A program made the position numbers and the translations under genes. From NCBI RefSeq assembly GCF_003334765.1, contig NZ_QOWT01000011.1: a DNA stretch of 64,000 bases, one strand, 5' to 3'. The notes below the pieces were generated by a model. It searched no databases and had not been told where the DNA came from. It saw nothing but the letters and a program-made list of their open reading frames with translations. This document shows, piece after piece, positions 3,498 through 61,676 of the stretch (position 1 is its first letter; every line of letters starts with the position of its first letter). Source of the DNA: Escherichia coli. GTDB lineage: Bacteria > Pseudomonadota > Gammaproteobacteria > Enterobacterales > Enterobacteriaceae.

Positions 3498-5465
3498 ATG
3501 GGTATTTTCTCCATTGCTAACCAACATATTCGCTTTGCGGTAAAACTGGCGACCGCCATTGTACTGGCGCTGTTTGTTGGCTTTCACTTCCAGCTGGAAA
3601 CGCCACGCTGGGCGGTACTGACAGCGGCGATTGTTGCCGCCGGTCCGGCCTTTGCTGCGGGAGGTGAACCGTATTCTGGCGCTATTCGCTATCGTGGCTT
3701 TTTGCGCATCATCGGCACATTTATTGGCTGTATTGCCGGACTGGTGATCATCATTGCGATGATCCGCGCACCATTATTGATGATTCTGGTGTGCTGTATC
3801 TGGGCCGGTTTTTGTACCTGGATATCCTCGCTGGTACGAATAGAAAACTCGTATGCGTGGGGGCTGGCCGGTTATACCGCGCTGATCATTGTGATCACCA
3901 TTCAGCCGGAACCATTGCTTACGCCGCAGTTTGCCGTCGAACGTTGTAGCGAGATCGTTATCGGTATTGTGTGTGCGATTATGGCGGATTTGCTCTTTTC
4001 TCCGCGATCGATCAAACAAGAAGTGGATCGAGAGCTGGAAAGTTTGCTGGTCGCGCAATATCAATTAATGCAACTCTGTATCAAGCATGGCGATGGTGAA
4101 GTTGTCGATAAAGCCTGGGGCGACCTGGTGCGACGCACCACGGCGCTACAAGGCATGCGCAGCAACCTGAATATGGAATCTTCCCGCTGGGCGCGGGCCA
4201 ATCGACGTTTAAAAGCGATCAATACGCTATCGCTGACGCTGATTACCCAATCCTGCGAAACTTATCTTATTCAGAATACGCGCCCGGAATTGATCACTGA
4301 TACTTTCCGCGAATTTTTTGACACGCCGGTAGAAACCGCGCAGGACGTCCACAAGCAGCTCAAACGCCTGCGGAGAGTTATCGCCTGGACCGGGGAACGG
4401 GAAACGCCTGTCACCATTTATAGCTGGGTCGCGGCGGCAACGCGTTATCAGCTTCTCAAGCGCGGCGTTATCAGTAACACAAAAATCAACGCCACCGAAG
4501 AAGAGATCCTGCAAGGCGAACCGGAAGTAAAAGTAGAGTCAGCCGAACGTCATCATGCAATGGTTAACTTCTGGCGAACCACACTTTCCTGCATTCTGGG
4601 CACGCTTTTCTGGCTGTGGACGGGCTGGACTTCCGGCAGTGGTGCAATGGTGATGATTGCGGTAGTGACGTCACTGGCAATGCGTTTGCCGAATCCACGC
4701 ATGGTGGCGATCGACTTTATCTACGGGACGCTGGCCGCGCTGCCGTTAGGGCTGCTCTACTTTTTGGTGATTATCCCTAATACCCAACAGAGCATGTTGC
4801 TGCTGTGCATTAGCCTGGCAGTGCTGGGATTCTTCCTCGGTATAGAAGTACAGAAACGGCGACTGGGCTCGATGGGGGCACTGGCCAGCACCATAAATAT
4901 TATCGTGCTGGATAACCCGATGACTTTCCATTTCAGTCAGTTTCTCGACAGCGCATTAGGGCAAATCGTCGGCTGTGTGCTCGCGTTCACCGTTATTTTG
5001 CTGGTGCGGGATAAATCGCGCGACAGGACCGGACGTGTACTGCTTAATCAGTTTGTTTCTGCCGCTGTTTCCGCGATGACTACCAATGTGGCACGTCGTA
5101 AAGAGAACCACCTCCCGGCACTTTATCAGCAGCTGTTTTTGCTGATGAATAAGTTCCCAGGGGATTTGCCGAAATTTCGCCTGGCGCTGACGATGATTAT
5201 CGCGCACCAGCGCCTGCGTGATGCACCGATCCCGGTTAACGAGGATTTATCGGCGTTTCACCGACAAATGCGCCGCACAGCAGACCATGTGATATCTGCC
5301 CGTAGCGATGATAAACGTCGTCGGTACTTTGGCCAGTTGCTGGAAGAACTGGAAATCTACCAGGAAAAGCTACGCATCTGGCAAGCGCCACCGCAGGTGA
5401 CGGAACCGGTAAATCGGCTGGCGGGGATGCTCCATAAGTATCAACATGCGTTGACCGATAGTTAA
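3498..5465 (+). CDS. aaeB: p-Hydroxybenzoic acid efflux pump subunit AaeB
   Basis: 655 aa polytopic membrane protein ORF followed by a rho-independent terminator. Confidence 0.9.
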
Positions 5466-5468
5466 GTC

Positions 5469-5497
5469 AAAACCGACGCCAAAAGCGTCGGTTTTTT
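5469..5497 (+). terminator. Rho-independent terminator after aaeB
   Basis: Stem ccgacgc / gcgtcgg (5473-5491) followed by a T-run at 5492-5497. Confidence 0.8.
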
Positions 5498-5556
5498 CAT
5501 GGCTATACTTAGCGATGCACGGCAGAACTCGCCGCGAAACGTGACGGTGGCAACAG

Positions 5557-5829
5557 ATGAATATTTATACCTTTGATTTTGATGAGATTGAGAGTCAGGA
5601 GGATTTTTATCGTGACTTTAGCCAAACCTTTGGTCTGGCGAAAGATAAGGTACGCGATCTCGACTCACTATGGGATGTGTTAATGAACGATGTCCTGCCG
5701 CTACCACTTGAGATTGAATTTGTTCATCTGGGAGAGAAAACGCGTCGCCGTTTTGGCGCGTTAATATTGCTGTTTGATGAGGCGGAGGAAGAGCTGGAAG
5801 GGCATTTGCGTTTTAATGTTCGTCATTAG
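5557..5829 (+). CDS. yhcO: Barstar-like putative ribonuclease (barnase) inhibitor YhcO
   Basis: 90 aa ORF with an acidic C-terminus, recalled as barstar-family YhcO; position between aaeB and yhcN conserved. Confidence 0.85.
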
Positions 5830-5832
5830 CGC

Positions 5833-5857
5833 AAAAAAAAGCCCCCGAACCGGGGGC
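5833..5857 (-). terminator. Rho-independent terminator after yhcN
   Basis: GC stem gcccccg-aac-cgggggc (5841-5857) preceded on the plus strand by an A8 run, which is the U-tract for the minus strand. Confidence 0.75.
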
Positions 5858-5884
5858 AATATCGTCGGACAAGACGATGAGGGT

Positions 5885-6148
5885 TTATTTGTACAGTTCA
5901 GCCGTAGCGTGCCAGGTGTCACCGCTACGAGCTTCAGTAATCTGGTAGGCCGTTGCGCCTTTCTCTTCCGCTTTTTTGTTCAGCATTTCACGCATATCCA
6001 TTGGCGAAGACGCCACACCACTTACGGATACGGTCCCGATTGCTTCACGATTTTGTGCTTGTGCAGCATCAATGGAGTCGGCAGCGAATGCACCGAAAGA
6101 GAGAACAGAAAGTACGCTTAATGCAGCAACAGTGGTTTTGATTTTCAT
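5885..6148 (-). CDS. yhcN: Periplasmic stress-induced DUF1471 protein YhcN
   Basis: 87 aa from the internal ATG (MKIKTTVAALSVLSVLSFGAFA...) with a signal peptide; AT-rich promoter region upstream. Confidence 0.85.
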   Translation of the reverse strand: MKIKTTVAALSVLSVLSFGAFAADSIDAAQAQNREAIGTVSVSGVASSPMDMREMLNKKAEEKGATAYQITEARSGDTWHATAELYK

Positions 6149-39798: not shown

Positions 39799-39910
39799 CC
39801 CCGGCTAGACCGGGGTGCGCGAATACTGCGCCAACACCAGGGAAATCTTGGCTGCGCCGTAAATTATTATGATGAGTTACAAGGGCACAGCACTGTTTTT
39901 CAGGCCGCAC
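39790..39910 (-). ncRNA. arcZ: Hfq-dependent small RNA ArcZ (SraH/RyhA), convergent with arcB
   Basis: The reverse complement of 39790-39910 matches my recollection of the 121 nt ArcZ sequence (5' GUGCGGCCUGAAAAACAGUGCUG ... CCCCGGUCUAGCCGGGGUCAUUUUUU 3'); its terminator hairpin and U-tract overlap the arcB stop codon at 39796-39798. Confidence 0.85.
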
Positions 39911-61524: not shown

Positions 61525-61642
61525 AATCTCGCGCTAACAACCTGGAATCGAGCCGTCATACTACGGCGCAACGCCCTATAAAGTAAACGATGACCCTTCG
61601 GGAACTTCAGGGTAAAATGACTATCAAAATGTGAATTGTAGC

Positions 61643-61676
61643 TGACCTGGGACTTGTACCCGGGTCGGTATTTTTT
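61643..61676 (+). terminator. Leader terminator/attenuator upstream of greA (GraL-type short leader transcript region)
   Basis: Hairpin gacctgggacttgtacccgggtc followed by a T7 run, about 95 bp upstream of the greA ATG. Confidence 0.6.

Follow-up and report, generated by a model that had tools for sequence, protein, structure and literature searches.

Local loss of a barnase-family ribonuclease gene as the probable origin of the orphan barstar-family gene yhcO of Escherichia coli

The 64-kb stretch of Escherichia coli DNA analyzed here in full (hereafter the window, with positions counted from its first nucleotide) carries yhcO, a barstar-family gene that has no ribonuclease (RNase) gene beside it. 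The window is a K-12-like chromosomal segment, running from tldD to obgE and 99.97% identical to MG1655. As a gene, and with respect to family assignment and structure, yhcO is already in the databases and is not new; what is new here is the origin of its orphan state by local deletion of an RNase gene, as gene order and sequence comparison suggest, and the strength of the selection that still maintains it.

Results

yhcO and its protein product

The gene, its immediate neighbors and the residues considered below are as follows.

5557..5829, plus strand: yhcO coding sequence, 90 codons plus stop with an ATG start, from the list of open reading frames (ORFs); predicted cytoplasmic barstar-family protein
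D36, W39 and D40 (helix 2) and E75 and E79 (helix 4) of YhcO: counterparts of the barstar hot-spot residues D35, W38, D39, E76 and E80
3498..5465, plus strand: aaeB, upstream neighbor of yhcO and synteny anchor
5885..6148, minus strand: yhcN, convergent downstream neighbor, encoding a periplasmic stress protein of the DUF1471/YdgH-BhsA family, not a toxin

The ORF at 5557..5829 is a genuine conserved gene and not a chance ORF. RefSeq names it 'yhcO: barstar family protein'. The sequence of its product agrees with PDB entry 2CX6 ('hypothetical protein YhcO') at 100% identity and with the Salmonella entry 5F4C at 86%, counted as identical columns in the alignment. The Pfam profile PF01337 (Barstar) matches residues 1-81 with an E value of 2.4e-9, is the sole Pfam domain of YhcO, and was found across its full-length close homologs, barring at most a handful of short or divergent ones. 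The AlphaFold 2 (AF2) model of YhcO has a predicted local distance difference test (pLDDT) score of 96.4 and the element order E-H-H-E-H-H-E, and a Foldseek search with this model returned 2cx6_A with a template modeling (TM) score of 0.99 and the barstar chain 1brs_D with TM scores of 0.80/0.83 and a root mean square deviation (rmsd) of 2.0 Å. The initial annotation had placed YhcO in the barstar family and had pointed to structure prediction as a way to overturn this assignment; the AF2 model and the Foldseek search gave the barstar fold, and together with the Pfam match and a DxxxD motif they bear the assignment out. The motif in helix 2 reads D36-S-L-W-D40, the DxxxD signature having been defined for the Imm-Barstar family (PMC3482391). 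YhcO matched no family in NCBIfam, PADLOC or PHROGs, and with respect to anti-phage defense, it matched no PADLOC defense-system protein model.

Barstar of Bacillus amyloliquefaciens (PDB 1BRS, 1BTA) and YhcO have in common PF01337, the alpha/beta fold (TM 0.80-0.83, rmsd 2.0 Å), a length of about 90 amino acids (aa) without a signal peptide, and the DxxxD motif and helix-4 glutamates; the barstar arrangement of three parallel strands and four helices within ~90 aa is predicted for YhcO, and the structures 2CX6 and, for the Salmonella protein, 5F4C have been solved. Unlike that barstar, YhcO has no adjoining RNase, and the two proteins are only ~20% identical in sequence. The equivalent of barstar Y29 is not conserved even in the enterobacterial barstars that are paired with an RNase (G/A/E), the conserved F of these paired proteins at the barstar Y30 position is lost in YhcO, and YhcO has no equivalents of T42-G43-W44, its loop there being longer by one residue. 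The chromosomal yhcO gene does not keep barnase from being lethal in E. coli, whereas barstar, when supplied, does (PMC8403359).

According to the initial annotation, yhcO has aaeXAB and yhcN as neighbors and no RNase-like ORF on either side, and both the gene list and a tblastn search of the window agree. When barnase, binase, RNase Sa and RNase T1 were used as tblastn queries against the whole 64 kb, the best E value was 1.7 and no barnase-like ORF was found, and the flanks of yhcO are aaeB and yhcN; an adjacent toxin gene that had been missed, which the initial annotation named as evidence against its own proposal, was not found, and the label 'orphan' stands. An RNase toxin was likewise absent from 52 K-12 features (window ~11.3-60.0 kb) and from 14 features around yhcO, the last ~4 kb of the window being covered by tblastn. 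No mobile-element genes were present near yhcO among the listed features, and an Rfam scan gave no RNA family near the gene. Orthologs of yhcN at locus L007 match PF07338, and beyond yhcN the window continues with argR and mdh.

RNase-barstar operons in related bacteria

Relatives of YhcO numbered 112 among 1.84 billion representative proteins, and the genomic context was inspected for those with 30-45% identity. In every inspected context outside Enterobacteriaceae/Erwiniaceae, a PF00545 'Ribonuclease' gene or, at locus L095, a barnase-like ORF fragment lies directly upstream of the barstar gene; these contexts come from Xenorhabdus, locus L006, Pragia fontium, 'Enterobacteriaceae bacterium LUAb1', four metagenomic contigs and Proteus mirabilis. 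The premise of the initial annotation that barstar genes usually adjoin the gene of their RNase is thus confirmed for all of them. Xenorhabdus, Pragia, Proteus, L006 and L091 share the arrangement tldD, zero to two genes, RNase and barstar, with yjgA and pmbA following within one or two genes, and the same tldD lies upstream of aaeR-aaeXAB-yhcO in E. coli.

One genome per species was scanned with one peptide pattern, giving 80 loci. The order aaeR-aaeXAB-(aldH)-RNase-barstar is found in every one of the 24 loci from Yersiniaceae, which represent Serratia and Yersinia, Y. pestis among them. In these 24/24 loci, in Xenorhabdus (L003-5) and at L006, the RNase-type ORF has a length of 149-158 aa and a hydrophobic leader at its N terminus, and over 100 aa it aligns to barnase with 54-62% identity. 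Measured in 27 loci, a set in which L005 is not included, the RNase stop codon lies 4-5 nucleotides (nt) before the barstar start, and the barnase residues K27, E73, R83, R87 and H102 are invariant in 27/27 RNases; the Y. pestis RNase matches PF00545 with an E value of 1.7e-15. The RNase gene overlaps the barstar start in Pragia, Proteus and L091/L094, and across the intact operons the RNase length ranges from 149 to 172 aa. Judged by these features, the RNases of the 27 measured loci are canonical and intact. The barstar-type member of Y. pestis is annotated as 'probable ribonuclease inhibitor YPO3690'; to our knowledge, the RNase-barstar operons of Yersiniaceae, Morganellaceae and Budviciaceae are uncharacterized.

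Several details of these loci and relatives may be recorded here. The aldehyde dehydrogenase gene between aaeB and the RNase gene of Y. pestis (L086, 7818-9316) is split into ORFs of 387 and 112 aa and is probably a pseudogene, while the gene at that place in Y. aleksiciae is a single ORF of 490 aa; the RNase and barstar genes beside the split gene in Y. pestis are intact. In Serratia (L061, L064-L076, L085, L087), the C terminus of the barstars is extended by a conserved tail of 10-11 residues, 'ESSGEPAHHRG', which neither the Yersinia nor the orphan proteins have. In P0214 (255 aa), another YhcO relative, the barstar domain occupies residues 173-251 and follows, as a fusion, an unrelated region of ~170 residues. 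A 241-bp scaffold in the 'Corynebacterium lipophiloflavum DSM 44291' assembly (L044, NZ_GG667244.1) is 100% identical to E. coli yhcO and is almost certainly E. coli contamination.

Origin of the orphan state

The RNase-barstar operon is intact at the same chromosomal position in Yersiniaceae (Serratia, Yersinia), Morganellaceae (Xenorhabdus, Proteus) and Budviciaceae (Pragia). At this position no RNase is present in any of 56 Enterobacteriaceae/Erwiniaceae loci (55 usable loci from the scan plus L007), where the order is aaeR-aaeXAB-(aldH)-yhcO-yhcN-argR-mdh. Family assignment was checked for Buttiauxella, Izhakiella and Pragia, and the other genera are placed in the families to which we take them to belong. 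The flanks are directly comparable: aaeB-aldH-RNase-barstar in Yersinia corresponds to aaeB-aldH-yhcO in most Enterobacteriaceae/Erwiniaceae, the same aldH preceding yhcO in Buttiauxella, Lelliottia, Citrobacter and Pantoea with only ~30-50 bp between the two genes. In Escherichia, aldH has additionally been lost. Thus, the operons of the three families resemble the yhcO locus in being positional orthologs with the same flank (tldD, aaeR-aaeXAB, aldH) and in belonging to the same clade, and differ from it in having kept an exported barnase-family RNase.

A tree was built with a numpy implementation of neighbor joining and 500 bootstraps, in which the orphan barstars form a clade (400/500) that is joined by the Yersiniaceae proteins (464/500). 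YhcO is 52-57% identical to the barstars of Yersiniaceae and 36-45% identical to those of Morganellaceae/Budviciaceae. As the orphans are one clade, sister to Yersiniaceae, a single deletion in a common ancestor is indicated. By shared position and protein comparison, yhcO corresponds as a positional ortholog to the inhibitor gene of these chromosomal operons, whose other gene encodes an exported barnase-family RNase, and the simplest reading of the data is that yhcO was inherited vertically and that the RNase gene was removed by one clean deletion in the common ancestor of Enterobacteriaceae and Erwiniaceae. Directly downstream of a barnase-family RNase gene is where a barstar-family gene is found in the orthologous loci of Yersiniaceae, Morganellaceae and Budviciaceae, but not at yhcO; since the missing RNase is a secondary loss, this is no argument against membership of YhcO in the barstar family.

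Selection on yhcO and changes at the interface

yhcO and its upstream region are present in 5426/5426 complete E. coli genomes, 5424 of them with at least 80% query coverage, a count that refers to the presence of the gene region and not to an ORF checked genome by genome; the ORF is intact in 56/56 species loci. Pairwise Nei-Gojobori ratios of nonsynonymous to synonymous substitution rates (dN/dS) within genus groups were 0.056 in Escherichia, 0.044 in Buttiauxella, 0.077 in Lelliottia/Enterobacter and 0.138 in Erwinia/Pantoea for the orphan genes, and 0.063 in Yersinia and 0.089 in Serratia for the paired ones. These ratios show purifying selection on the orphan that appears as strong as that on barstars still having their RNase.

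The residues D36, W39, D40, E75 and E79 are invariant in 56/56 orphans and in 27/27 paired proteins. The F, G and A preceding 'NLDALWD', and T42, do not vary among the paired proteins but do so among the orphans; the orphans gained an insertion of one residue in the loop that follows helix 2 and newly fixed S37, P48 and D74. The paired barstars keep an invariant 'FGANLDALWDVVTG' motif, whereas the orphans read 'x[VI]x[DN]LDSLWDV' plus the insertion. As an internal control, the C-terminal half is nearly invariant, with a mean entropy of 0.54 in the orphans versus 0.54 in the paired proteins, while the N-terminal third and the interface segment are about 2-fold more variable in the orphans than in the paired proteins. 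With the hot spots invariant and the rim changed, the core of the binding surface would be under selection, and the specificity-determining rim would have been relaxed or re-tuned after the loss of the RNase.

Searches for barnase-family RNases elsewhere

A tblastn search with the Xenorhabdus RNase gave no match in three complete E. coli chromosomes, one Klebsiella pneumoniae chromosome or any enterobacterial plasmid, and the same query found Bacillus, Clostridium and Proteus homologs down to ~43% identity. As a control at the protein level, whole chromosomes are mis-filed in the plasmid collection, and YhcO finds those records, which were therefore searched. The check proposed by the initial annotation, a search for barnase or RNase-toxin domains beyond the locus, accordingly returned none at the protein level in the three E. 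coli chromosomes. No match was obtained with this RNase in 50,697 phage records. A blastn search in 'distant' mode with nine enterobacterial RNase genes (Serratia plus eight concatenated) against 5426 E. coli genomes was also empty but of low sensitivity: the Y. pestis barstar DNA, used as a sensitivity control, also misses E. coli yhcO, so that absence at the DNA level is too insensitive a test. E. coli K-12 is not known to have an annotated PF00545 protein.

YhcO had 11 matches in the plasmid collection, all of chromosomal size or context, and no true plasmid copy was among them. Six records there (NZ_OL790696.1, NZ_CP134663.1, NZ_CP141089.1, CP125156.1, NZ_OL790811.1 and NZ_OL790812.1) are 'plasmids' of 4-5.4 Mb that are evidently chromosomes of E. 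coli, K. pneumoniae or P. mirabilis; such mis-filed chromosomes are a trap for plasmid statistics.

Expression of yhcO

The elements around yhcO that may govern its expression are as follows.

5469..5497, plus strand: intrinsic terminator of aaeB, a hairpin with a T6 run, read from the sequence; RNA fold -16.9 kcal/mol, z=-7.2
5503..5512, plus strand: candidate sigma-S-type -10 element CTATACTTAG (-13 C, then TATACT), read from the sequence
5546..5550, plus strand: Shine-Dalgarno-like GGTGG, 6 nt before the ATG, read from the sequence
5841-5857, minus strand: terminator of yhcN, a G+C-rich hairpin with a T8 tail on the minus strand, from a terminator scan and folds of both strands
5860-5879, plus strand: likely terminator of yhcO, a hairpin with a T-rich tail on the plus strand, from the same scan and folds

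The aaeB terminator, which was not listed by a consensus terminator scan and was found by direct reading with its hairpin checked by folding, is conserved in all six of the Escherichia species loci and is predicted to insulate yhcO from the aaeXAB transcript. Six bases past it and 45 nt upstream of the yhcO ATG lies CTATACTTAG, a candidate promoter element of yhcO, which resembles the sigma-S -10 consensus, TCTATACTTAA. The sequence [G/T]CTATACTTAG is invariant in the six Escherichia species loci, including those in which different DNA precedes the terminator, and a scan for sigma-70 consensus promoters upstream of yhcO found none. In E. albertii and another Escherichia (L010, 9212-9900; L009, 9745-9900), 260-800 bp of extra DNA lie between aaeB and the terminator-promoter module of yhcO; a spurious ORF in it reads '...PDALRLSGLQ...' and is repetitive extragenic palindromic (REP)-like in look, and the terminator and CTATACTTAG are still conserved there.

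Within the literature searched, the record on yhcO consists of transcriptome and regulon tables, with no functional study found, and the Salmonella ortholog STM3363 features in a single paper. The yhcO expression ratio of the wild type over an rpoS mutant was 214 in stationary-phase EDL933 (PMC2907692), acid shift induces the gene (PMC2270276), and LldR activates it, its function being given as 'unknown' (PMC10272880).

Discussion

The ancestral operon would have encoded an exported barnase-family RNase of the N1/T1/Sa type, guanyl-specific, together with a cytoplasmic barstar-type inhibitor; the RNase half would have been deleted, leaving YhcO as the surviving inhibitor half. By a barstar-like mechanism, helix 2 and the following loop (D36, W39, D40) would form with E75 and E79 an acidic plug, which would cap the basic active-site cleft of an RNase-like partner one-to-one, without catalysis. 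We regard this origin, combined with a retained inhibitor-like function, as probable, although well short of certain, a statement that does not extend to the identity of the target. Schreiber, Buckle and Fersht reportedly showed in 1994 that the acidic hot-spot residues of barstar destabilize its fold and are retained only for binding.

If E. coli has no barnase-family gene, the partner of YhcO cannot be its lost cognate. We tentatively favor, as the likeliest of several readings of its present role, a cell-intrinsic one in which YhcO would bind an endogenous basic partner in stationary phase. This preference stems from the absence of a barnase-family gene from the E. coli chromosomes searched, the remodeled periphery of the interface, and the behavior of yhcO as a core stationary-phase gene. 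In Salmonella, deletion of the ortholog STM3363 raised swarming in pure culture to 1.36 ± 0.21 of the wild type, with swimming and flagellar number unchanged (PMC4534456); the deletion primers map exactly around the yhcO ortholog, and this phenotype favors a cell-intrinsic role.

Several points weigh on the other side of the proposed origin and role. The sample of 80 loci misses Pectobacteriaceae and Hafniaceae, and the exact node at which the RNase was lost is not fixed. The STM3363 phenotype is small and uncomplemented and could reflect an effect on the convergent gene yhcN-B, and literature searches found no biochemical data on partner binding or RNase inhibition by YhcO. The invariant acidic residues are equally compatible with an immunity function. 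Lastly, a linked chimera of a Serratia RNase and E. coli YhcO, modeled with AF2, gave confident domains but no confident docking between them, at a predicted TM score (pTM) of 0.50 and with no natural-pair control; the alignment for it had constant partner halves and no inter-domain covariation, and we give the result no weight.

A further reading, which we consider doubtful, is that YhcO was re-targeted after the loss of its cognate and would now be an RpoS-induced cytoplasmic cap for another basic RNase that reaches the E. coli cytoplasm. Candidate new targets would be leaked RNase I, a toxin of the RelE/YoeB type, which has a barnase-like BECR (barnase-EndoU-colicin E5/D-RelE) fold, or an RNase of phage origin. 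An example of the last is T4 RegB, a basic and cyclizing enzyme that has been assigned to the barnase family and likened to YoeB and RelE (PMC3014915). Re-targeting is compatible with the invariant acidic plug, with a periphery that was remodeled and then fixed (S37, P48, D74 and the insertion), with the core-gene status of yhcO and the purifying selection on it, and with the pure-culture phenotype in Salmonella. Were it true, YhcO would be a previously unrecognized endogenous RNase regulator of stationary phase.

After the cell-intrinsic role, we judge that stand-by immunity ranks next: YhcO would be kept to neutralize barnase-type RNase toxins that enter the cytoplasm from outside, which we consider possible but rather unlikely. 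Their sources could be polymorphic toxins with barnase domains delivered by the type VI secretion system (T6SS), Rhs, contact-dependent inhibition (CDI) or toxin complex (Tc) systems, or the RNases of Serratia, Yersinia, Proteus, Bacillus and Clostridium, and barnase-family RNases are indeed common in organisms sharing the habitats of E. coli. The invariant hot-spot residues agree with such a function, and a relaxed, diversified interface periphery is what would be expected of a generalist with no single co-evolving partner. Barstar also cross-inhibits the distant RNase Sa (PDB 1AY7), so that inhibition across families is possible. Tox-Barnase/Ntox21 toxins paired with Imm-Barstar have been reported in gammaproteobacteria with delivery by T6SS, Photorhabdus virulence cassettes (PVC) and Tc (PMC3482391). 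On the other hand, no route is known by which secreted barnases enter the Gram-negative cytoplasm, searches of three E. coli chromosomes, one K. pneumoniae chromosome, enterobacterial plasmids and 50,697 phage records yielded no member of the barnase family, and expression of yhcO depends on RpoS rather than being constitutive. Furthermore, cloning of barnase or binase in E. coli requires that barstar be co-expressed (PMC8403359), and since these RNases are toxic unless barstar is supplied, the chromosomal yhcO gives no protection in growing cells. The initial annotation envisaged that yhcO could protect against a toxin whose gene lies elsewhere or that comes from other cells, and for this we obtained no support.

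The comparison with orphan immunity genes leads in the same direction. Like orphan cdiI and rhsI arrays and acquired interbacterial defense clusters, yhcO has no cognate toxin in its genome, and Imm-Barstar is a catalogued immunity family of polymorphic toxin systems (PMC3482391). However, orphan immunity genes are normally accessory, strain-variable and island-borne, on mobile elements or beside toxin loci and toxin-tip fragments, whereas yhcO occurs in single copy as a core gene (5426/5426) that shows no presence/absence polymorphism and keeps a fixed place at a housekeeping locus; it is vertically inherited, under strong purifying selection (dN/dS ~0.05) and RpoS-regulated, with no toxin fragments adjoining. 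As a strict core gene with RpoS-dependent expression, yhcO differs from typical examples of the orphan immunity genes to which the initial annotation had suggested it could belong. Solitary antitoxins that remain after toxin loss, which are general in type II toxin-antitoxin systems, offer another parallel, as there too the neutralizing partner outlives the toxic one. Unlike a type II antitoxin, YhcO has no DNA-binding domain, Barstar being its only Pfam domain, and no known autoregulatory role, and the partner that was lost was an exported enzyme with an N-terminal leader in its ancestral form, not an intracellular toxin.

The remaining alternatives are all highly improbable in our judgment. 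That the cognate RNase was relocated within the E. coli genome, so that yhcO would not be truly orphan, is hardly likely: an old relocated copy would be missed by searches at the DNA level, as the failed Y. pestis barstar control illustrates, but the tblastn search with the Xenorhabdus RNase was empty in the three E. coli chromosomes and the one Klebsiella chromosome, nothing was found in the 64-kb window, and blastn with the nine RNase genes was empty in 5426 genomes. Still less credible is the arrival of yhcO by horizontal transfer, as a solitary immunity cassette with no relation to the operon of Yersiniaceae. Barstar genes do occur widely and sometimes move in toxin-immunity cassettes (PMC3482391), but the flank tldD-aaeR-aaeXAB-aldH is common to paired and orphan loci, and this synteny refutes acquisition; moreover, the orphans are monophyletic and sister to Yersiniaceae, with no mobile-element genes nearby and no true plasmid copies. 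The orphan state is thus not that of a stray immunity cassette, as yhcO is, on this evidence, the vertically inherited remnant of an operon at this locus. Equally implausible is a functionless relic awaiting loss, for although yhcO has lost its cognate RNase and no report of an essential phenotype exists, the notion is contradicted by the selection data (dN/dS of 0.04-0.14 in four orphan genus groups, equal to that of paired genes), the intact ORF in 56/56 species loci and gene region in 5426/5426 E. coli genomes, the nearly invariant C-terminal half, and the regulated expression.

An enzyme-inhibitor operon that lost its enzyme in the ancestor of two large bacterial families, and whose inhibitor was kept with its hot spots intact, offers a clear-cut, testable example of how an inhibitor can outlast its enzyme, which we consider of moderate interest. 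The question of why E. coli has a barstar becomes sharply testable, with the Yersinia, Serratia and Proteus RNases as natural positive controls and the lineage-specific interface changes as a defined set that can be reverted. There is also a practical side, as barnase-barstar is widely used as a tool in E. coli. In at least one paper, E. coli is stated to lack a barstar gene (PMC8403359), with no account taken of the chromosomal yhcO, a member of the barstar family.

Other observations on the window

Downstream of yhcO, yhcN is present as two or three tandem paralogs in most genera (L014-L060) and is single in Escherichia. Compared to MG1655, the window has only 16 mismatches in ~61 kb, so that it is K-12-like but not MG1655. 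At positions 24932-24935 it is without the 1.2-kb IS5 that splits yhcE in MG1655, and as the sequence is uninterrupted across the insertion point, yhcE should be intact. The only two Rfam matches above threshold in the window are the ArcZ small RNA (39803-39910, minus strand) and the greA leader (61555-61676, plus strand).

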